From Patescibacteria group bacterium (GTDB taxonomy: Bacteria; Patescibacteriota; Patescibacteriia; JAHJFT01), in NCBI GenBank assembly GCA_028710985.1, contig JAQTTB010000002.1:86750-150749 (forward strand): a stretch of 64,000 nucleotides of DNA, in the 5' to 3' direction. Below the pieces are notes generated by a model. That model ran no database searches, was not told where the DNA came from, and saw only the letters and a program-made list of their open reading frames with translations. A program made the position numbers and the translations under genes. Below are positions 3,471 to 42,844 of the stretch, in pieces (position 1 is the stretch's first letter; each line of letters opens with the position of its first letter).

Positions 3471-4907
3471 CTATATTTTACGCACAGCCCGGATAAACTG
3501 CTCGCCACGGTCAAATTCATTGCGAAATAAACCAAAGCTCGCGGCCGACGGTGAAAGCAGGATAATCTCACCTTTTTTGGCAAGCTTTTTGGCGAGATTT
3601 ACGGCCGCGTTCATGGAGTCTACCGTGGACTCAATCTCAACCCGGTTTTTTTTGAGTTCGGCGGACATTTTTGGCGTGGCCGTGCCCTGAAGCAGGACGA
3701 CTTTTTTACAATATTTTTTAAGCGCCTTTGCCCATTCCCCGAAGATGAGCTCTTTGTCCGCCCCGCCGGCAATCAGGATGATATTCTTCTGCACCCCGAG
3801 GGTGCGCAGAGCCGCGATTCCGGCATCCGGCGTGGTGGCGGTAGTATCATTATAATATTTGACTCCCCTGATCTCGCGGATGAGCTCCTGCCGGTCCGCC
3901 AGGCCATTGAACGCGCGCAGGGTTTTCCGCACCGCGACGCACGGCACGCCCATTATTTTCGCTACCGCGAGCGCGGCCAGACTGTTATAAAGATTATGTT
4001 CTCCGCGCATTGCCGCGTCTTTTACTGACGCGACATTACGGACGCGCCCGTCCTCTCGGAAAATCATGCGTCCGTTTTTAACCATGGCGCCGTTTTCTTC
4101 AATGAACGGTTTAAGCGAAAACCAGAAACGCCGGCCAATCACCCGCGCGCCAAACTGCCGCGTATATTTATTATCGCGGTTCAGCACTGCGAAATCGCCG
4201 ACATTCTGATGCGCGAGAATCATTGCCTTGGCTTCGCCGTACTCTTTCATGCCGTTATATGTATTCAGATGATCGCGCATCACGTTGGTGATGACCGCGC
4301 CGTGCGGGCTCATCCGCCCTGCGTTGAGATCTTCAAGCATCCATGAAGAAAGTTCAACCACCGCGACATCCCCGGGCCGGAGTTTGTGCAAAAAATTCAA
4401 CGGAGAAATCTTGATATTGCCGCCCAAAAAAACGCGCCTGTATTTGCGCTTCAGCATCTCGTAGATGAGCGACGTGGTCGTGCTCTTGCCGCGCGTTCCG
4501 GTGACCCCGATAATCCGGCACGGGCAATGGCGGAAAAATATGGTCATGTCGGATTCAATGTGCGCGCCGGCTTTTCTCGCCGCCGCAAGGTATTCGGAAC
4601 TGCGCCGCATGCCCGGATTCTTAACCACAATGTCGGCTTCGCGGAAATCCGATATCCGGTGCTTTCCCAAAACAAACTTAATCTTGAGTCCCCGGAGCGA
4701 GCGCACGCTTTTTGCAAGAAGCGCGGCGGACTTCAAATCCGTCACCGTGACCCGCGCGCCGAGTTTGGCAAAAAACCGGGCCGCCGAAATCCCGCTCCCC
4801 TTCTCATACGACCCCAAACCGGCGATCAGGATTTTTTTATTTTTATATTCTGAAAATTGATTATGCATAATTTGTAATATTACCTGCTCATCTGCGCGGA
4901 CGAACAA
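3471..4907 (-). CDS. murD: UDP-N-acetylmuramoylalanine--D-glutamate ligase
   Basis: N-terminal Rossmann fold (KKILIAGLGSYEKGSG), central GVTGTRGKSTTTSLI P-loop, Mur ligase C-domain. Confidence 0.75.
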   Translation of the reverse strand: MFVRADEQVILQIMHNQFSEYKNKKILIAGLGSYEKGSGISAARFFAKLGARVTVTDLKSAALLAKSVRSLRGLKIKFVLGKHRISDFREADIVVKNPGMRRSSEYLAAARKAGAHIESDMTIFFRHCPCRIIGVTGTRGKSTTTSLIYEMLKRKYRRVFLGGNIKISPLNFLHKLRPGDVAVVELSSWMLEDLNAGRMSPHGAVITNVMRDHLNTYNGMKEYGEAKAMILAHQNVGDFAVLNRDNKYTRQFGARVIGRRFWFSLKPFIEENGAMVKNGRMIFREDGRVRNVASVKDAAMRGEHNLYNSLAALAVAKIMGVPCVAVRKTLRAFNGLADRQELIREIRGVKYYNDTTATTPDAGIAALRTLGVQKNIILIAGGADKELIFGEWAKALKKYCKKVVLLQGTATPKMSAELKKNRVEIESTVDSMNAAVNLAKKLAKKGEIILLSPSAASFGLFRNEFDRGEQFIRAVRKI

Positions 4908-4913
4908 TATCGT

Positions 4914-5364
4914 CCTCCCCCTTTGTTCAAAAGGGGGAGACAGGGGGGGGATTTTTTTCTCTAATCCCCTATCGCCTCGGCAATTTTGTTGACAACCTCA
5001 TCTGGGCTTTTTAATACATCGCCGTTTGAAAAACGCAGCACCCTAAGTTTCCAAACATACTCCAGATATTTATTTCTTTCTTCGTCACGTGTTCTCTGCA
5101 ATTTGTCATAATTATGATGACCGCCATCAACTTCAACCACCAACTTCTTAGACGGACAATAAAAATCAACTATATAATTGCCAATCCTTGTTTGACGAAA
5201 AAATTGCGCGCCATAAACTTGTTTGTGGCGCAATCGAATCCAAAGTGTCATTTCCGCTGGCGTCATCGCCTTACGAAGATTGCGCGCCGTGGTTTTTAGT
5301 TTTGAGTTGTAAGTAGGCATAAAATCCCTCCCTGACCCTCCCTTTTGAACAAAGGGAGGGAACG
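4914..5364. mobile_element. 451-bp unit bounded by 44-bp inverted repeats whose only cargo is a DUF559 endonuclease gene
   Basis: Left repeat 4914-4957 and the reverse complement of right repeat 5321-5364 align at about 80% identity (ccccctttgttcaaaagggggagacaggggggggatttt versus ccctccctttgttcaaaagggagggtcagggagggatttt); the repeats abut the stop and start codons exactly. Confidence 0.5.
4961..5320 (-). CDS. DUF559 / Vsr-like (very-short-patch-repair-like) endonuclease domain protein
   Basis: 119 aa with the YVDFYCPSKKLVVEVDGGHH core typical of DUF559 restriction-endonuclease-like proteins. Confidence 0.65.
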   Translation of the reverse strand: MPTYNSKLKTTARNLRKAMTPAEMTLWIRLRHKQVYGAQFFRQTRIGNYIVDFYCPSKKLVVEVDGGHHNYDKLQRTRDEERNKYLEYVWKLRVLRFSNGDVLKSPDEVVNKIAEAIGD

Positions 5365-5394
5365 TTATATGAATGTCTTAATCAGCTCACCGTC

Positions 5395-5414
5395 ATTCCC
5401 GCGAAAGCGGGAAT
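5395..5414. repeat. Perfect hairpin ATTCCCGCGAAAGCGGGAAT
   Basis: Seen directly; the form ATTCCC-N8-GGGAAT resembles small dispersed-repeat families. Confidence 0.3.
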
Positions 5415-5483
5415 CCAGCCGCTAAGATTAACCAAGACGCGCCGTATTCAAGCGGATTGATTAACGGATGATTTCAAATAATA

Positions 5484-6104
5484 TTAAATCAGATTAATAT
5501 CAATAAGCAAATCCCTCACTCTTTGAAAAATCTTCTCATGTCCGCGAGCGTTTGGATGCAAGCCATCCTCAAAATCCTCGTGATTCAATAAGCTCTTAAT
5601 CTCCGCATATTTTACCCCCTCTACGCTACAGATATCTTTCAAGGCATTATCATACTTAATAACATTATCATCATCATAAAACAATTCCGCATCCCAGGTC
5701 GTTGGCATGGTCTTTTTCTCATCAACTCCGGCCAACCCCACAATTATTGCCCTGCCCTCAATTTTCTTTGCCTGTTTTATCAATTTAAAAATATTCTTTT
5801 TAAATCTCCGTAGCGGGACTTTTGGATTTTTTTTCGCCACGCGATAATAAGAATCATTGATGCCGACGGCAAAAATAATTATGCCGGGGTCTCGCGTCCT
5901 AGCCTCTCCCTTGAATCTTTTTAAAAGTTTGTCCGTATTGTCTCCCGAAATACCAAGATTATAGACCGAAACATCTTCGTAATTTTTAGCACAAAAAATC
6001 TTCAGTCTCTCCGCCCAGCCGCCCTGTTCATAGTCGCACGCTCCCCAGACGATACTATCGCCAAAAACGCAAATATTTTTATCCATATTTTTAAAATTTA
6101 CCAA
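5484..6104 (-). CDS. SGNH/GDSL-family hydrolase
   Basis: Blocks ICVFGDSIVWG, GISGD, GINDS and the DGLHPN catalytic His block. Confidence 0.75.
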   Translation of the reverse strand: MVNFKNMDKNICVFGDSIVWGACDYEQGGWAERLKIFCAKNYEDVSVYNLGISGDNTDKLLKRFKGEARTRDPGIIIFAVGINDSYYRVAKKNPKVPLRRFKKNIFKLIKQAKKIEGRAIIVGLAGVDEKKTMPTTWDAELFYDDDNVIKYDNALKDICSVEGVKYAEIKSLLNHEDFEDGLHPNARGHEKIFQRVRDLLIDINLI

Positions 6105-6762
6105 CTAGATGCGCCCACCTCACAATTATCATTGCTTTAAAAATCTCATAATACATTCTAATGTATTCCCTCAGCCCATTCGTAAACCCGACCTTCTGCA
6201 TCTTGCGCCTGATGGTGAGCCCCGGGCACTCGGCCGAACCGTACTTGAGTTTCCTGGACCGGCAGTAATAATTCATGGCGATCTCGGCCATGAATCCGCG
6301 CCGGTACGCGTCCGGAATATCTTCAAAAACCTGGCGCCGCATCGCCCTCTCTCCGCCGATCAGCGGCAGGATTCCGGAAAGCTTCATCAAAAATTTTCCA
6401 CGGTCGCGCAATCCCACGCACATGGCAAGCCGGCCTTGGATAACGGGTTTTAAAATTGCTTCAATATGCGCGTGGCTGAATCCGTACAAATCCGCATCCG
6501 CGAAAAAAATAATCGGCGCATCGGTGTGCGCCACGCCGTGCGCCATTGCCGCGCCTTTTCCGCCCTTGATCGGCAGCTGATGCGAGATCGTAATTCCGGC
6601 GCGGTTGCCGATTTCATGCGTACGATCGGATGACGCGTCGGAAATCAAAATCACCTCGTCAACAAGCGGCGAGGTTTTCAATGTCTCCAGAATCGGTCCG
6701 ATTGTCTCTTCTTCATTAAACGCGGGCACGATTGCCGCGACCCTAGGCTTTTGACCATCCAT
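6091..6762 (-). CDS. Family 2 glycosyltransferase
   Basis: AAIVPAFNEEETIGPIL and the DAD motif (FFADADL) of the GT-A fold. Confidence 0.7.
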   Translation of the reverse strand: MDGQKPRVAAIVPAFNEEETIGPILETLKTSPLVDEVILISDASSDRTHEIGNRAGITISHQLPIKGGKGAAMAHGVAHTDAPIIFFADADLYGFSHAHIEAILKPVIQGRLAMCVGLRDRGKFLMKLSGILPLIGGERAMRRQVFEDIPDAYRRGFMAEIAMNYYCRSRKLKYGSAECPGLTIRRKMQKVGFTNGLREYIRMYYEIFKAMIIVRWAHLVGKF

Positions 6763-7324
6763 AAATCCTATTTCTTACCAATAAAATAAAGATTATTGAA
6801 ATCAAGGTGAACATTGAATATATAATGAAGACTGCATGAAAACCTAAGAATTGCGCCACATATCCGCCGACAAACGCGGTTATACCCATGGCAAGCGAGG
6901 TAAGCGATCCGTAAATCGCCCAAGTGCGCCCTTCGCTGTATCCGTCGACAAATCTTGTCCAAATCGTGTACCAGCCCGGATAATACAACGCTGCGCCGAT
7001 GCCGTCCACAATCTGCAAAAGAAAATAATGCTCTATACGGTGAATAAAAATATATCCGATCGGCACTAGGCTCATGATAAAAAGACCCAGGACCAGTGTG
7101 ATGAACTCGCGCCGATTGCCGCGTTCGCGGTCATTGAATATGCCGAGCGGAACAATCACCGCGGCCTTCACGAAACAAACAATCATGACGGCGAGTCCGG
7201 CCGCGAATATCGAACCTCCAACGATTTTATCGTTAATAAAAATTGCGATAACCGGCGACACCAGTGTAACGCCGGATAAAAATATCACGTCCGCAATGAT
7301 GAGATATTTTAGAACTTTATTCAT
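6743..7324 (-). CDS. Six-transmembrane protein resembling half of an MFS transporter
   Basis: Six predicted hydrophobic helices; half the size of a canonical MFS transporter. Confidence 0.35.
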   Translation of the reverse strand: MNKVLKYLIIADVIFLSGVTLVSPVIAIFINDKIVGGSIFAAGLAVMIVCFVKAAVIVPLGIFNDRERGNRREFITLVLGLFIMSLVPIGYIFIHRIEHYFLLQIVDGIGAALYYPGWYTIWTRFVDGYSEGRTWAIYGSLTSLAMGITAFVGGYVAQFLGFHAVFIIYSMFTLISIIFILLVRNRIYGWSKA

Positions 7325-35588: not shown

Positions 35589-36176
35589 CTACATATGCAA
35601 ATCCTTTTTATTATTTCTGTCGATTTCCCAATTTTTTGGGTTATTAATAATATATTCGGAAATGCCATGCAATGATTCTTCGCCCATGATAATACAATCG
35701 TAATATCGGGGCTGCCAGACGAAATTATTGCCAACGCACAATCGATGTATTTGTTTTGTCGTTGCCAATTTATAGGAACCGACTATAACCGGCAATGAAC
35801 CCGATTTTAACGGTCCCGGTAGAGACGCGGCATGCCGCGTCTCTACGTTCGCATGCCGCGTCTCTACCGGACACGTATTTTGCGTCTCTGCGCCACCGTC
35901 AACGCCACGAAAAATTATTCCATGAACATGATTCGGCATAATTATGAATTCGCCTAATTCAACAAACGGAAAATGCCGCGGAATAGCCAGCCAACAATCT
36001 CGTGCAATCTTACCCAGATCATTTAAAACCATCCGGCCTTTCTTAATGTCCCCAAAACAAATCTTTCGATCCTTTGTGCATATCGTAACAAAATAATACC
36101 CGGCGGATGAATAATCCCAGCCGGGCAATCTTGCAGACGGTATTCGATATTTATTTTGAAATAATATATCCGACAT
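35589..36176 (-). CDS. REP-associated tyrosine transposase (RAYT, IS200-like Y1 HUH transposase)
   Basis: HuH motif HVHGIIF, an N-terminal YYFVTICTKDRK block and the C-terminal catalytic-Tyr block VWQPRYYDCII. Confidence 0.8.
   Translation of the reverse strand: MSDILFQNKYRIPSARLPGWDYSSAGYYFVTICTKDRKICFGDIKKGRMVLNDLGKIARDCWLAIPRHFPFVELGEFIIMPNHVHGIIFRGVDGGAETQNTCPVETRHANVETRHAASLPGPLKSGSLPVIVGSYKLATTKQIHRLCVGNNFVWQPRYYDCIIMGEESLHGISEYIINNPKNWEIDRNNKKDLHM
35822..35876. repeat. GTAG-initiated perfect 28-bp palindrome (GTAGAGACGCGGCATGCCGCGTCTCTAC) plus a partial second copy, embedded in-frame within the RAYT ORF
   Basis: Seen directly; it is translated as the tandem peptide VETRHA-N-VETRHAA. 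Confidence 0.6.
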
Positions 36177-37271
36177 CTACTCCATCTCCCCCAATTGTTC
36201 AATTAATTTTTTTTGTTCGCGGGACAAATGCTTCGGGACCTTCACTAAAACCTCTACCAACTGATCCCCCCTTCCGCCGCCGTGCAGCGCCGGGATTCCT
36301 TTATCATTTAATTTAAAAATTTGGCCGCCTTGGGTTCCGGCCGGTATCTTTAAACTGACACGCCCTTCAATTGTCTCGATGTCAGTGCTCCCGCCCAGTG
36401 CGGCAAGCGTAAACGAAATATGCTCGTGCGAAATAATGTTCAGCCCGTCGCGCTTAAACCGCGCGTCCGGCCGCACGCGCACATGCACATACAGGTCGCC
36501 GGCACGTCCGCCCCAGGCGCCTCGTTCGCCCTGGCCGGAAAGCTTGATTACTTCGCCGTTATCAATGCCGGCCGGTATTTTTATTTTCAGCTGCCGGCTC
36601 TGTTTGGTCGCGCCGATTCCGCCGCATTCGCGACACGGTTTTTCCGGACGCTTGCCTTCGCCGTGGCATTCACGGCAGACCGCGGTGGATTGGAAGCTCC
36701 CGAACACCGTGCGTTGCACCGTCTGTACCTGGCCGCTCCCCCCGCACGTCGCGCAGGAAATAATCTTTGTGCCCGGCTCGGCGCCGTTGCCCTGGCAATG
36801 CCGGCAACTATCGCTCTTGTATAAATTCAAAATCTTCTCGGCTCCGAAAACCGTTTCCGAAAAATCAATGTCTGCATCAACTTCGATATCCGCGCCGCGC
36901 GCCCGGCCCGACCGGCGCCTTGTTCCGCCGCCCATGCCGCCGAACAAATCTCCCAGAATATCGCCGAGGTCGCCGACATTGCCGAAATCAAAACCCGCGC
37001 CGCCTCCGAACGGTCCGCCAAAACCCTGCCCGAATCCCGGACCGGCCTGGTCAAAAGTCGTGCCGAACTGATCATACTGGCGCCGTTTTTCCGGGTTGCC
37101 GAGCACCTGAAAGGCTTCGTTAAGCTCCTTGAATTTGGCTTCATCCCCGCCCGCCTTGTCCGGATGGAATTTATGCGCCAGTTTGCGGAAAGCCTTTTTA
37201 ATTTCTTCCGGCGACGCGCTTCTGTCCACGTCCAATATTTTGTAATAATCTTTTGCCATTGAATTATTCAA
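36177..37271 (-). CDS. dnaJ: Chaperone DnaJ
   Basis: J-domain with HPD, Gly/Phe-rich region, four CxxCxGxG zinc-finger repeats. Confidence 0.9.
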   Translation of the reverse strand: MNNSMAKDYYKILDVDRSASPEEIKKAFRKLAHKFHPDKAGGDEAKFKELNEAFQVLGNPEKRRQYDQFGTTFDQAGPGFGQGFGGPFGGGAGFDFGNVGDLGDILGDLFGGMGGGTRRRSGRARGADIEVDADIDFSETVFGAEKILNLYKSDSCRHCQGNGAEPGTKIISCATCGGSGQVQTVQRTVFGSFQSTAVCRECHGEGKRPEKPCRECGGIGATKQSRQLKIKIPAGIDNGEVIKLSGQGERGAWGGRAGDLYVHVRVRPDARFKRDGLNIISHEHISFTLAALGGSTDIETIEGRVSLKIPAGTQGGQIFKLNDKGIPALHGGGRGDQLVEVLVKVPKHLSREQKKLIEQLGEME

Positions 37272-39772: not shown

Positions 39773-39787
39773 AATTTCTGTAAATTA

Positions 39788-40187: not shown

Positions 40188-40655
40188 TTACTTTTTATTA
40201 ATAATTACTTTTGCGGCGCGAATTAATACTCCGCGCAGTTTATAGGCGCAAACGATTGTCTCCAGCACCTCGTCCTCTTCCCGGCCGTCTTCGCTTCTCT
40301 GCCCGACCGCCTCCATAAACGCGGGATCGAACTTGCCGGTAATTTCAACCTTTTCGAGCCCGGCCTGGTAGAGCGCGTCCCGCATCTGGCGGTAAATGCC
40401 GTCAATCCCCTCAACCCATTTGCCGGCTTCGGAATCCGCCGCGGGCTGGTGTTCTTTGGCTTTTTCAAAATTATCCAGCACCGGCAGGAGCGACAGAATT
40501 ATTTCCTTATTCGCATATTTAAAAATCTCAATGCGCTCTTTGGCGGTTTCCTTCTGCAGATTGTCATAATCCGCGCGCGCCCGCTTCCAGCCGGCAAGAT
40601 ATTCTTCCGCCTGTTTCCGGAGCGCCTCGCAGTCGCATTTATTTTTTTCTTCCAT
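40188..40655 (-). CDS. grpE: Nucleotide exchange factor GrpE
   Basis: GrpE coiled-coil and C-terminal beta domain (LLPVLDNFE...). Confidence 0.85.
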   Translation of the reverse strand: MEEKNKCDCEALRKQAEEYLAGWKRARADYDNLQKETAKERIEIFKYANKEIILSLLPVLDNFEKAKEHQPAADSEAGKWVEGIDGIYRQMRDALYQAGLEKVEITGKFDPAFMEAVGQRSEDGREEDEVLETIVCAYKLRGVLIRAAKVIINKK

Positions 40656-40674: not shown

Positions 40675-41013
40675 TTATCCTAATTTACTGCCATTGGGTA
40701 CACTTTTGTCCGGGACAGCCAGGACAACGGACCCATCTTCTCTATAAAATCCCGAGCAAAGAAATTCTGAATTAAACGGTCCGATCTGTTTTGCCGGAAA
40801 ATTAACCACGCCAATTATTTGTTTATTCATTAAATCTTCTTTGCGATACAGATCCGTAATTCTGGCGCTTGATTGCCTGATGCCGATTTCTGAACCAAAA
40901 TCAGCCGTTAATTTATAGGCCGGTTTTTTTGCTTCGGGAAAATCCTGCACATCAATTATCGTGCCCACCCGCAACTCCACTTTTTCGAATTCATTCCATG
41001 TTATTGGTTCCAT
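40675..41013 (-). CDS. tRNA-binding protein CsaA/Trbp111-like
   Basis: OB-fold tRNA-binding-domain pattern ([11 protein letters not shown]...AYKLTADFG). Confidence 0.6.
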
Positions 41014-41052
41014 AGTGTTCGCTATAATGTATTTTTTCTATATAATGCCCTT

Positions 41053-42084
41053 CTAAGCTAACTTCTCATTCCAACCAATTTTTCGACAATTGAAACATTC
41101 GTCTCCTAGAGAATTAAATATACTAGATGTAGATATTGGCGAATCGAGATAGTATGTTCCGCATGCACTACAGGGCTTAATCAAAGATTGACTAGCTGTC
41201 AAAGTATATTTATCAGTCGAACAGATATCGTCGAATATGCCTGATATAGACGGACAATGCAAGCGATTGTTGGAATATACTATTTCCCCAGATTCGTTAA
41301 TATGTATATGCGGGGCAAGGACTCCCCTAGCTACACCGACGCTTCTTTCTTCTTCGAGGGCCCGCTTCTTTACTACCCGCTTATTAGTAAAATTATTTAT
41401 GAATTTACCCAATGTAGTAAAAAATGTTAATTCCTTTTTGGTTTTTTCGCTCCATTCACGGATCAAAAACTCATTAATTTTTTCATTCTCAATCTCGCTC
41501 GCAAAATCTCTATCACCTGAAATAATTGTTAAATCTTGATCAGTGAGATATTCTAGGACGGTTTCCCATATTATTGCATCGCCAAAAGATTTATTATTTT
41601 TCCTAGGTGGATTTCCTTTTAAAGTTCTATAATATGCTCGTTCAGTGACTCTATTATTATCGAGTAATATCGTTGCTTTGGAAAAAATTTTTTTAATTTT
41701 ACGATTTATCAAGCTCCTTGGATTGGAAATCCTTGTGTTATATTCTTTTAAAATCTCCTCCTGTATTTTATGCAATTTTTTTAAAGTTTTTATCCAAACA
41801 TCAATTTTTTTATATGATTTCAGAAATTGAGGAGCTTTCGTATTTATACTAAATTTTTTTAATTTTTCAGAAAAATCTTTCGTAACGGCAATCTTATCGC
41901 GATAAAATTCATCTACGACCTGCGCGGGGATACAAAGTTCAATCTTTCTTGAAATTATAAGATCTAAGAGCTTTTCTAGGCCCACTAGAGATTGCTCAGA
42001 CATTCGATAATAATTTAAAAAAATGTTCGTGTCGATTAATACTCTTTTCATAAATATAAATTGAAGGTTTACAATTATGCACAA
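41053..42084 (-). CDS. PIN-domain nuclease fused to a C-terminal multi-cysteine zinc-ribbon region; AT-rich foreign gene
   Basis: N-terminal PIN core VLIDTNIFL plus downstream acidic residues; C-terminal cysteines CPSIS...C...CSACG...CFNCR; about 30% GC against about 50% in the flanks. Confidence 0.55.
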   Translation of the reverse strand: MCIIVNLQFIFMKRVLIDTNIFLNYYRMSEQSLVGLEKLLDLIISRKIELCIPAQVVDEFYRDKIAVTKDFSEKLKKFSINTKAPQFLKSYKKIDVWIKTLKKLHKIQEEILKEYNTRISNPRSLINRKIKKIFSKATILLDNNRVTERAYYRTLKGNPPRKNNKSFGDAIIWETVLEYLTDQDLTIISGDRDFASEIENEKINEFLIREWSEKTKKELTFFTTLGKFINNFTNKRVVKKRALEEERSVGVARGVLAPHIHINESGEIVYSNNRLHCPSISGIFDDICSTDKYTLTASQSLIKPCSACGTYYLDSPISTSSIFNSLGDECFNCRKIGWNEKLA

Positions 42085-42795
42085 CTATATGCTGTCAATC
42101 ACTTCTTTGGTCTGCCGGACCAAAGAATAGTTTTTATTATAATCCATGCGCAGCGGCCCGAGCAATGCCAGCACCCCGGGCTCGCGGTCCGCGTATTTGT
42201 ATTTGGCGATGACCAGGCTGGTCTGCGGACCGAACGGATTATTCGTCCCGACCAGAATCTGCGCCTCCTCGTTTACATTATCAAAAATCATGGAAAGCGT
42301 ATCATCCAGCCGGTCAAGCATGGCCGTCAGGTTGAACGCCTGCGAATATTCCTGAAATTCCGGGTGGCGGAAAAGGTTGGAAAGCCCGGTGTAATACGCG
42401 TGATTGAATTTGAAACCCACGATCATCGCTTCTCCGGAAATTTGGGCCAGGAGCTTGGCGACCTGCTTGATCGCCTGTTCGTAAATTGAGCTTTTGAGCA
42501 TCTCCTGAACCACATTCTGGAATTTGACGCTTTTTTCGTATTGTAAAAATTCCTTAACAAAAAAATCATACGCTTTTTCACTGGGCACGCGGCCGGCCGA
42601 GGTGTGCGGCTTGATGAGATAGCCGCTCTTCTCCAGCTCCGACATTTCGGCGCGCGCCGTGGCTGAACTCATTTTCAGCTTGTATTTATCAACCAGATTG
42701 CCCGAACCGACCGGTTCGGCGCTCTCAATGAAATCGCGTATAATTAAGCCCAATAATTGTTTTTGTCTTGCGGTGAGCATACCATTGGCAGTCAC
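42085..42795 (-). CDS. hrcA: Heat-inducible transcription repressor HrcA
   Basis: Winged-helix N-terminus (LTARQKQLLGLIIRDFIESAEPVGS) and the HrcA C-domain. Confidence 0.85.
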   Translation of the reverse strand: MTANGMLTARQKQLLGLIIRDFIESAEPVGSGNLVDKYKLKMSSATARAEMSELEKSGYLIKPHTSAGRVPSEKAYDFFVKEFLQYEKSVKFQNVVQEMLKSSIYEQAIKQVAKLLAQISGEAMIVGFKFNHAYYTGLSNLFRHPEFQEYSQAFNLTAMLDRLDDTLSMIFDNVNEEAQILVGTNNPFGPQTSLVIAKYKYADREPGVLALLGPLRMDYNKNYSLVRQTKEVIDSI

Positions 42796-42811
42796 ATTAA
42801 ACGACTGCTAA
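42785..42811 (-). promoter_or_regulatory. CIRCE-like operator TTAGCAGTC-N9-GACTGCCAA between the -10 element and the hrcA start
   Basis: One mismatch per arm relative to the CIRCE consensus TTAGCACTC-N9-GAGTGCTAA, with 9-nt spacing. Confidence 0.65.
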
Positions 42812-42815
42812 TGGC

Positions 42816-42844
42816 ATTATAATAAAAATAAAAATCATTGTCAA
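42816..42844 (-). promoter_or_regulatory. Consensus sigma-70 promoter on the minus strand (TTGACA, 17 nt, TATAAT) for the hrcA operon
   Basis: The reverse complement of 42816-42844 reads TTGACAatgatttttatttttatTATAAT. Confidence 0.6.

Follow-up and report, generated by a model that had tools for sequence, protein, structure and literature searches.

A foreign PIN_12 zinc-ribbon gene, plausibly a single-gene defence nuclease, inserted in the heat-shock operon of a Patescibacteria group bacterium

The stretch of Patescibacteria DNA analysed here (the window, 64 kilobases (kb)) contains a heat-shock operon in which an AT-rich gene of foreign origin lies between hrcA and grpE. The gene encodes a PIN-domain protein with a C-terminal zinc ribbon and is a zinc-ribbon-tailed variant of the known PIN_12 family (DUF4935), which has experimental links to phage defence. 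We lean towards the reading that it is a horizontally acquired, stand-alone PIN_12 nuclease gene of a mobile, defence-type subfamily, which inserted at the hrcA–grpE junction and is read from the HrcA-controlled promoter. Relatives of the gene often adjoin restriction-modification and other anti-phage genes, which makes the copy in the window a plausible defence gene.

A foreign gene at the hrcA–grpE junction

The open reading frame (ORF) listed at this position (41053..42084, minus strand) lies directly 3′ of the hrcA stop codon and encodes 343 amino acids (aa) from a TTG. The ORF is real, but its true start is the ATG at 42051 (MKRVLIDTNIFL...). The resulting product of 332 aa is identical to the NCBI entry MDD4995675.1, 'MAG: PIN domain-containing protein [Patescibacteria group bacterium]' (MAG, metagenome-assembled genome), under which the gene is already annotated as encoding a PIN-domain protein. 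It belongs to a co-oriented series on the minus strand comprising hrcA, the PIN gene, csaA, grpE, hsp20, dnaK, an HD_4 gene resembling small-alarmone hydrolases, and dnaJ. Pfam and NCBIfam assign the families HrcA, CsaA/tRNA_bind, GrpE, HSP20, HSP70, HD_4 and DnaJ across the operon. The initial annotation had proposed a heat-shock operon driven by a consensus promoter with a CIRCE (controlling inverted repeat of chaperone expression) operator, and these family matches, a promoter agreeing with the consensus at 12 of 12 positions and a CIRCE-like repeat bear this out.

Scans with HrcA located relatives of the locus: one Patescibacteria MAG contig (L007, HrcA 61% identical), seven syntenic metagenome loci (L017-L022 and L024, HrcA 70-73% identical) with the common gene order hlyD-abc-ftsX-ftsX-hrcA-grpE-hsp20-dnaK-HD-dnaJ, and one shorter contig (L023, HrcA 59% identical). 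In every one of these, grpE directly follows hrcA. The distance from the hrcA stop codon to the grpE start codon is 2-5 nucleotides (nt) in L007, L017, L018, L020 and L021, some 10 nt in L023 and as many as 116 nt in L022, whereas the junction in the window measures 1,429 nt. Both the PIN gene and csaA are absent between hrcA and grpE in all relatives with that junction. Because the relatives join hrcA to grpE without either gene, the PIN gene sits in an insertion of about 1.4 kb at the hrcA–grpE junction. The suspicion that the gene had been inserted in the operon is thus confirmed by the spacing in relatives (2-116 nt), with the correction that the insertion does not consist of the PIN gene alone, csaA being absent there too. 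The start of hrcA, the gene immediately upstream of the insertion, agrees with the starts in relatives. The layout of the window recurs on a Logan contig of this organism (L012), and run SRR22315506 contains DNA identical to the locus. Successive spacers in the window are short, measuring 33 nt between hrcA and the PIN gene, 39 nt between the PIN gene and csaA, and 19 nt between csaA and grpE.

The base composition of the insert also departs from that of the operon. The PIN gene has 33.0% GC, with a GC content at third codon positions (GC3) of 0.288 and 30.8% GC over its first 240 codons, and the lowest GC content of any 1-kb stretch of the window is found at 41101-42100 (0.327, which is 3.9 standard deviations under the window mean of 0.49). 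Corresponding values for operon genes are 49.8% GC and GC3 0.64 for hrcA, 51.5% and 0.60 for grpE, 53.5% and 0.63 for dnaK, and 56.0% and 0.63 for dnaJ. The first claim, that the PIN gene lies well below neighbours that all have about 50% GC, therefore holds for these four genes (49.8-56.0%), but csaA is not near 50% and is itself atypical (41.3% GC, GC3 0.38); the PIN gene and csaA together form a low-GC island from 40675 to 42084. Since the PIN gene is absent from relatives that keep the hrcA–grpE junction and its composition is far from the host's, it is of foreign origin.

Direct and inverted repeats around the 1.4-kb insert amount to short AT-rich chance matches, and no recombinase lies beside it. 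A transposon, an integron cassette and an integrase-mediated event were each considered as the vehicle and set aside for lack of evidence, no flanking repeats surrounding the insert.

The hrcA–grpE junction seems, from sequence comparison, to tolerate insertions. In L022 the 116-nt insert at this junction (3493-3607) holds a long imperfect palindrome, and two Saccharibacteria loci (L008 and L009) have variable DNA there too.

The second gene of the insert, csaA, appears to have a history of its own. Homologues with 81-87% identity are widespread in Patescibacteria as stand-alone genes at unrelated loci, which, together with the absence of csaA from the relatives' operon, indicates that csaA is not an ancestral operon member; relocation or a separate acquisition may account for its presence. 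Of the PIN homologues on usable contigs, the closest two (L046 and L047) both lack an adjacent csaA. The PIN gene and csaA were probably separate arrivals, given their difference in GC3 (0.29 against 0.38) and the lack of an adjoining csaA at other PIN homologues. The two could alternatively form a module in which a CsaA/Trbp111-like protein delivers tRNA to the nuclease or shields tRNA, as partner or antidote. In favour of this, the low-GC insert missing from relatives holds both genes, CsaA has a tRNA-binding domain, and VapC-group PIN domains commonly cleave tRNA (PMC13092281). However, a tRNA_bind neighbour occurs in none of nine other contexts of PIN–zinc-ribbon genes, and this finding, with the stand-alone csaA homologues and the separate histories that GC3 suggests, makes a two-gene module decidedly improbable.

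An intact PIN_12 active site and a variable zinc-ribbon tail

The protein matches Pfam PIN_12 (PF16289) over the full length of the model, residues 4-183 being aligned to all 172 model positions (1-172) at E 2.6e-18 with a score of 67.4 bits, where the gathering cut-off is 32; Pfam PIN_8 matches it as well. In an alignment of 43 family sequences the acidic residues D7, E48, D158, D180 and D182 are invariant, as are R142, P148, P149, K151, G157, A159, W162 and E163, and a loop of the form RGNPPRK-x5-FGDAIIWE is strongly conserved. As judged from this alignment, the acidic active-site set of the PIN domain is intact. All the acidic residues are therefore in place and no homologue of native composition is conserved at this position in the lineage, two findings that leave the idea of a foreign PIN nuclease standing.

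AlphaFold models the protein with a mean predicted local distance difference test score (pLDDT) of 83, exceeding 90 over most of residues 1-240 and falling to low confidence in the linker. In the model, residues 43-125 form a long helical insert (helices 43-66, 81-109 and 114-125) within the PIN core, and the alpha/beta extension of the PIN_12 family follows. A Foldseek comparison, as the initial annotation had suggested, points to PIN nucleases. The top matches in the PDB are PIN nucleases only (HARP RNase P and VapC toxins), and these matches are weak, with a probability of 0.99, E values of about 3e-3 to 3e-2 and a TM-score relative to the query of about 0.25. In BFVD one phage protein described as 'PIN like domain' was matched (E 1e-5).

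The C-terminal tail is less uniform. Its last zinc ribbon keeps both CxxC knuckles, as in 40 of the 43 family members, and the ribbon before it has decayed to a vestige. The proposed fusion of a PIN domain to a zinc-ribbon region is thus upheld for PIN_12 and one zinc ribbon, but the description of that region as multi-CxxC overstates it, as there are just two CxxC motifs and the first ribbon is a remnant. A profile search with the tail against solved structures gave weak, generic zinc-finger similarity only. Two ribbons are present in 26 of the 43 family members, one in 14 and none in 3, and among 129 further representatives one or two ribbons occur in 64 and none in 40. This varying number of ribbons marks the tail as the variable part of the protein.

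A probably mobile single-gene family, in part found among restriction-modification genes

A word-indexed search returned 48 homologues, mostly of 320-390 aa and with 90-98% of the query aligned, and a hidden Markov model search of 1.84 billion cluster representatives returned 4,602 at E <= 1e-3, of which 869 reach E <= 1e-30. Each homologue cluster is present on one to a few contigs. The homologues are AT-rich in every host examined (28-36% GC, GC3 0.21-0.30, with host flanks at 33-53% GC); in L013, for example, the PIN homologue has 32.5% GC against 52.7% in its flank.

We read nine independent contexts of the homologues (L001, L003, L005, L013, L014, L015, L016, L046 and L047). In L015 the gene lies between a type III methyltransferase gene (mod) and a type III restriction enzyme gene (res), with overlapping stop and start codons, beside a serine recombinase. 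In L016 it forms part of a type I restriction-modification (R-M) locus in the order hsdR, hsdM, two small ORFs, PIN gene, hsdS. The two small ORFs (4877-5637; 88 and 170 aa), which have no Pfam or PADLOC match, could be accessory components. L005 has the PIN gene between a Dam methyltransferase gene and Shedu SduA (PADLOC 1.4e-136), and in L046 the PIN gene follows two D12 methyltransferase genes and RE_AlwI of a type II R-M system. Elsewhere the neighbours are an upstream HNH_5 protein and a hypothetical protein near tuf/S10 (L001), hypothetical genes (L003), a radical-SAM gene and rpoC (L013), a NUDIX gene (L014) and a class I aminoacyl-tRNA synthetase gene (L047). Thus four of the nine contexts lie inside or directly beside type I, II or III R-M genes or Shedu, which by a rough judgement, made with no formal test, is well above what a random gene would be expected to show. 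An all-against-all BLAST comparison of 16 flanking proteins from eight homologue loci revealed no shared neighbour. The contexts vary and no partner is conserved, as befits a stand-alone PIN_12 gene.

These neighbourhoods bear on whether the gene might be a housekeeping or stress RNase, serving RNA processing or turnover in heat shock as a legitimate member of the lineage's regulon. The gene is co-oriented and tightly packed in the operon, and several homologues stand beside tuf/S10, rpoC or an aminoacyl-tRNA synthetase gene. Yet every syntenic relative lacks it, it is distributed patchily and its neighbours differ from one occurrence to the next, and in this host as in others its composition is strongly foreign. 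We therefore hold such a role to be improbable, and homologues within type I and III R-M operons, beside a type II R-M system and beside Shedu support the initial annotation in its preference for a defence-like over a housekeeping protein. The best-supported reading of these comparisons is that the PIN_12 zinc-ribbon subfamily behaves as a mobile, single-gene, defence-type accessory gene and not as a housekeeping RNase.

Mobility of another kind was also considered, namely that the protein is a selfish homing-type nuclease which cuts the intergenic junctions of conserved operons with its zinc ribbons as the DNA-binding module. The precise insertion into a junction of 2-5 nt, without repeats, integrase or transposase, is what such an element might leave, and other members too are AT-rich in their hosts and lie between tightly packed conserved genes. 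But csaA, an unrelated gene, shares the insert, the contexts all differ and show no recurrent target site, and we know of no PIN-domain homing endonuclease. Among the explanations weighed here this is the least probable.

More distant PIN_12 proteins (26-31% identity), which lack ribbons, occur in three further settings: on E. coli P1-like phage-plasmids, downstream of a giant N6 methylase; on a Xanthomonas plasmid, beside an ABC-three-component/DUF2326 system and insertion sequence elements; and on 17 IMG/VR viral contigs. A 316-aa PIN_12 protein of the first kind, encoded at 5995-6945 of L027 (E. coli plasmid NZ_CP142921.1), is 30% identical to the window protein over residues 4-200. It is also found on about 20 similar P1-like phage-plasmids and in phage JL22, upstream of the icd/ant immunity region. 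PHROGs returned a family of unknown function for the window protein, and NCBIfam no match above its cut-offs.

Relation to known PIN nucleases

Matelska et al. (2017, PMC5499597) described DUF4935 as a VapC-group PIN-like family of unassigned function, whose mono-cistronic genes encode proteins of some 350 aa that have conserved acidic residues and a long helical insert. It was reported among Actinobacteria, Bacteroidetes, Firmicutes as well as Proteobacteria, with a C-terminus that was uncharacterised and, after the PIN core, an additional alpha/beta region of unknown fold (PMC5499597). The family studied here agrees with that description in its full-length match, its size of about 330-380 aa, four to five acidic residues, the helical insert, the alpha/beta region and its mono-cistronic genes. 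It differs in adding one or two C-terminal zinc ribbons, and in that the only named member of the zinc-ribbon subfamily here is from Patescibacteria.

Two PIN_12 proteins have been linked experimentally to defence. Cosus (Brc24) is a single-gene integron cassette with a PIN12 domain that confers complete resistance to T7 through T12, D14 and D96; strong expression carries a cost, and how it is expressed depends on where it stands in the operon-like array (bioRxiv 10.1101/2024.07.02.601719). By description only, the window gene resembles Cosus as a single gene with a PIN12 domain and no antitoxin, the Thr and Asp of the PIN motif being what Cosus needs for defence. Cosus resides, however, on mobile Proteobacteria integrons that have attC sites; the window gene is not flanked by repeats of that kind.

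The second is DS-5, an anti-phage system of E. coli whose effector is a PIN_12 protein of 376 aa, WP_021513009.1 (DefensePredictor, Science 2026, PMC13092281). Our family profile and this effector align over residues 1-184 in hhalign, at a probability of 78% and E 1.8e-5, a remote similarity that spans the PIN_12 domain only, the C-terminal halves being unrelated. DS-5 is also a two-gene system. Its defence requires both the PIN catalytic residues and an upstream DUF5830/AcrIF4-like partner (PMC13092281), and no such partner is present at the window locus, where the gap between hrcA and the PIN gene is just 33 nt. The partner, DS-5A, has no meaningful match to the family or to the zinc-ribbon tail. 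DS-3, from the same work, is a single PIN protein without an antitoxin, for which auto-inhibition until infection was suggested (PMC13092281). DS-3 has no real similarity to our family profile. An analogy of layout can be drawn elsewhere in the family.

PrrC/RloC-type anticodon nucleases are latent RNases with a HEPN-like/ATPase fold, embedded in type I R-M loci. The PIN genes of L015, L016 and L046, nested among R-M genes, recall this arrangement and suggest, by analogy, a back-up nuclease for when restriction is inhibited. The fold of PrrC/RloC is unrelated to PIN, however, and the window copy adjoins no R-M gene.

VapC toxins are compact, at about 130-150 aa, and the gene of the VapB antitoxin usually lies upstream and overlaps. 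The window protein belongs to the same fold group as VapC and shares its arrangement of acidic residues, VapC toxins are among its best Foldseek matches in the PDB, and it matches TIGR00305, 'PIN family toxin', weakly (E 0.005; 17 bits against a cut-off of 29). A classical type II toxin of the toxin-antitoxin (TA) kind, VapC-like and stress-activated, with its antitoxin lost or unrecognised, is nonetheless very unlikely. Far from being compact, the protein is more than twice the size of VapC, with a helical insert and extra domains, and no VapB accompanies it. The spacers on either side (33 and 39 nt) contain no small ORF, and two antisense ORFs (41237-41539 and 41645-41830) have no Pfam family match. 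No neighbour is conserved in eight homologous loci, and DUF4935 genes are mono-cistronic (PMC5499597). The initial annotation was right that no cognate antitoxin ORF is visible, but the likeness that it drew to a stress-activated toxin is not supported in the TA sense, as PIN_12 genes are typically monocistronic and a 332-aa product is no compact VapC.

Likely transcription from the CIRCE promoter

The CIRCE-like repeat at 42785-42811 is the sole match in 64 kb to TTAGCANNC-N9-GNNTGCTAA with at most two mismatches. Both promoter hexamers and the CIRCE are kept at the same position in five relatives (L017, L018, L020, L021 and L022). No second CIRCE was found in the window or in L017, where the single copy likewise lies upstream of hrcA. 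Consensus scans gave no match to a minus-strand terminator between hrcA, the PIN gene, csaA and grpE, no promoter match in the hrcA–PIN spacer and no strong promoter match between hrcA and grpE. Given a single CIRCE and promoter upstream, the lack of a terminator match and the short spacers, the PIN gene is likely co-transcribed with the heat-shock genes, as judged from its position.

Phage infection induces heat-shock genes, and the wiring could itself be the mechanism. The proteotoxic load of a phage would titrate chaperones, inactivate HrcA and de-repress the nuclease, so that the unfolded-protein response served as the infection sensor. Consistent with this, the cluster's sole CIRCE and promoter stand ahead of the PIN gene in its place between hrcA and grpE, no terminator is matched, and hsp20 and dnaK are only 15 nt apart, so the whole chaperone set is apparently read through the insert. 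We nevertheless judge this mechanism unlikely. It would rest on a single instance, as none of the nine other family contexts lies in an hrcA operon and all eight relatives are without the gene; basal expression of the dnaK operon is high, so the operator gives little on/off contrast; and the unameliorated composition suggests a recent arrival, with little time for selection on regulation. Somewhat less likely again is a fuller scheme in which a PIN_12 defence nuclease is wired into the HrcA/CIRCE circuit, the chaperone-titration sensor doubles as infection sensor and CsaA is possibly a co-opted tRNA-binding partner. Most simply, the heat-shock control that the initial annotation proposed for the PIN gene, a putative coupling seen in one genome, is an accident of insertion.

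The chaperone cluster of the window departs from that of relatives at two further points. In L017 a gene of about 143 aa on the opposite strand (6743-7174, minus strand), encoding a hydrophobic, membrane-like product, and a hairpin terminator lie between hsp20 and dnaK, with equivalents in L020, L021 and L022. This segment is missing from the window, where hsp20 and dnaK are separated by the 15 nt at 39773-39787, making the chaperone cluster a single co-oriented block in this genome only. An extra gene of 94-97 aa (MNYNQPPQ...EEFALDFI...) stands between the HD_4 gene and dnaJ in L017 (9854-10138) and L020 (9875-10168); it is absent from the window, where the HD_4 gene overlaps dnaJ (37264-37271).

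A latent nuclease as the proposed mechanism

On the reading that we favour, of a horizontally acquired stand-alone PIN_12 nuclease, the PIN gene would have inserted together with, or next to, csaA into the hrcA–grpE junction of a few nucleotides, and would now lie inside the transcription unit of the consensus promoter and CIRCE upstream of hrcA. VapC-group PINs, and the antitoxin-less PIN proteins validated in defence, supply the analogy from which we infer nuclease activity, an RNA substrate, auto-inhibition and a defence role. With Mg2+ or Mn2+ bound at D7, E48, D158 and D180/D182, the enzyme would cut nucleic acid, which to judge by VapC-group PINs is most likely RNA. Recognition of the substrate or the trigger may fall to the helical insert, the zinc ribbon and the basic RGNPPRK loop, which may also keep the enzyme latent until a phage cue. 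Once active, the enzyme would degrade phage or host RNA and so block phage propagation. Its coupling to the HrcA regulon would be an accident of the landing site, tolerated because the enzyme is latent. That the nuclease is probably latent until triggered is suggested by the lack of an antitoxin and by the apparent transcription of GrpE, DnaK and DnaJ genes through the PIN gene.

Several observations count against this reading. The similarity to the validated DS-5 is remote and DS-5 needs a partner that is missing here, while the likeness to Cosus is one of description only. PADLOC-DB v2 gave only a weak match for the window protein, to PDC-M11A (E 0.0046, 13.7 bits, residues 3-79). Five of the nine contexts are housekeeping or hypothetical neighbourhoods, with tuf/S10, rpoC, NUDIX, aminoacyl-tRNA synthetase or hypothetical genes. 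That the window protein keeps just one of two ribbons could be a sign of decay. Finally, the scans for promoters and terminators score agreement with a consensus and no more, and an internal promoter could go unnoticed in AT-rich DNA.

Table 1. Features of the PIN_12 insertion and its surroundings, in window coordinates.
Feature	Position	Strand	Details
Predicted PIN_12 and zinc-ribbon nuclease gene, AT-rich, foreign	41053..42051	minus	332 aa and stop codon
PIN_12 (DUF4935) nuclease domain	41503..42042	minus	Residues 4-183; Pfam full-model match
Alpha/beta extension of the PIN_12 family	41323..41502	minus	Residues 184-243; conserved EW motif (E199, W200); confident in the model
Vestige of first zinc ribbon	41221..41256	minus	C266 and C277 left; partner cysteines replaced by Ser and Asp; low pLDDT
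Intact C-terminal zinc ribbon	41086..41172	minus	C294-x2-C297 ... C319-x2-C322
hrcA–PIN spacer, left edge of insertion	42052..42084	minus	33 nt, read from the sequence
csaA (tRNA-binding protein gene), second gene of low-GC insert	40675..41013	minus	112 aa; NF007493 3.8e-52; TIGR02222 2.7e-45
grpE, right edge of insertion	40188..40655	minus	Pfam GrpE 1.4e-33
hrcA	42085..42780	minus	231 aa from ATG at 42780; Pfam HrcA 1.4e-16; TIGR00331 6.7e-50
Sigma-70-type promoter	42816..42844	minus	-35 TTGACA 42844-42839; 17-nt spacer; -10 TATAAT 42821-42816; 12/12 consensus match
CIRCE-like HrcA operator, inverted repeat	42785..42811	minus	TTAGCAGTC-N9-GACTGCCAA; immediately 3′ of the -10 box and shortly ahead of the hrcA ATG

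Other features of the locus

HrcA is a short form in the window and in relatives, with 231 aa against about 340 and part of the middle region missing; its TIGR00331 score of 170 bits falls under the equivalog cut-off of 197 because of this shortening. Directly downstream of dnaJ lies a 195-aa ORF (35589-36176, minus strand) that resembles IS200/RAYT-type Y1 transposases (Pfam Y1_Tnp E 2e-4, just under the cut-off), with a near-consensus promoter by it at 35581-35553. At gathering scores, Rfam matches in the window were limited to three tRNAs, all distant, and the loci of the relatives had none.

Discussion

Patescibacteria, of the candidate phyla radiation (CPR), have tiny genomes with few recognised immune systems beyond R-M. 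The PIN_12 zinc-ribbon subfamily is a credible candidate for a single-gene defence or back-up nuclease in these bacteria, since it is AT-rich in every host, has no conserved partner and is repeatedly nested in R-M loci or placed by Shedu. It would extend two experimental reports of phage defence by PIN_12 proteins in E. coli.

Its place in the heat-shock operon has been observed once and is not to be over-read; a defence nuclease truly wired into the HrcA/CIRCE circuit, if that reading held, would represent a new coupling of immunity to a core stress regulon in a Patescibacteria lineage. The window copy indicates that such a nuclease gene may be tolerated inside the transcription unit of GrpE, DnaK and DnaJ, which would imply tight post-translational latency. 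It thereby offers a natural test case for how antitoxin-less PIN nucleases may be kept silent.

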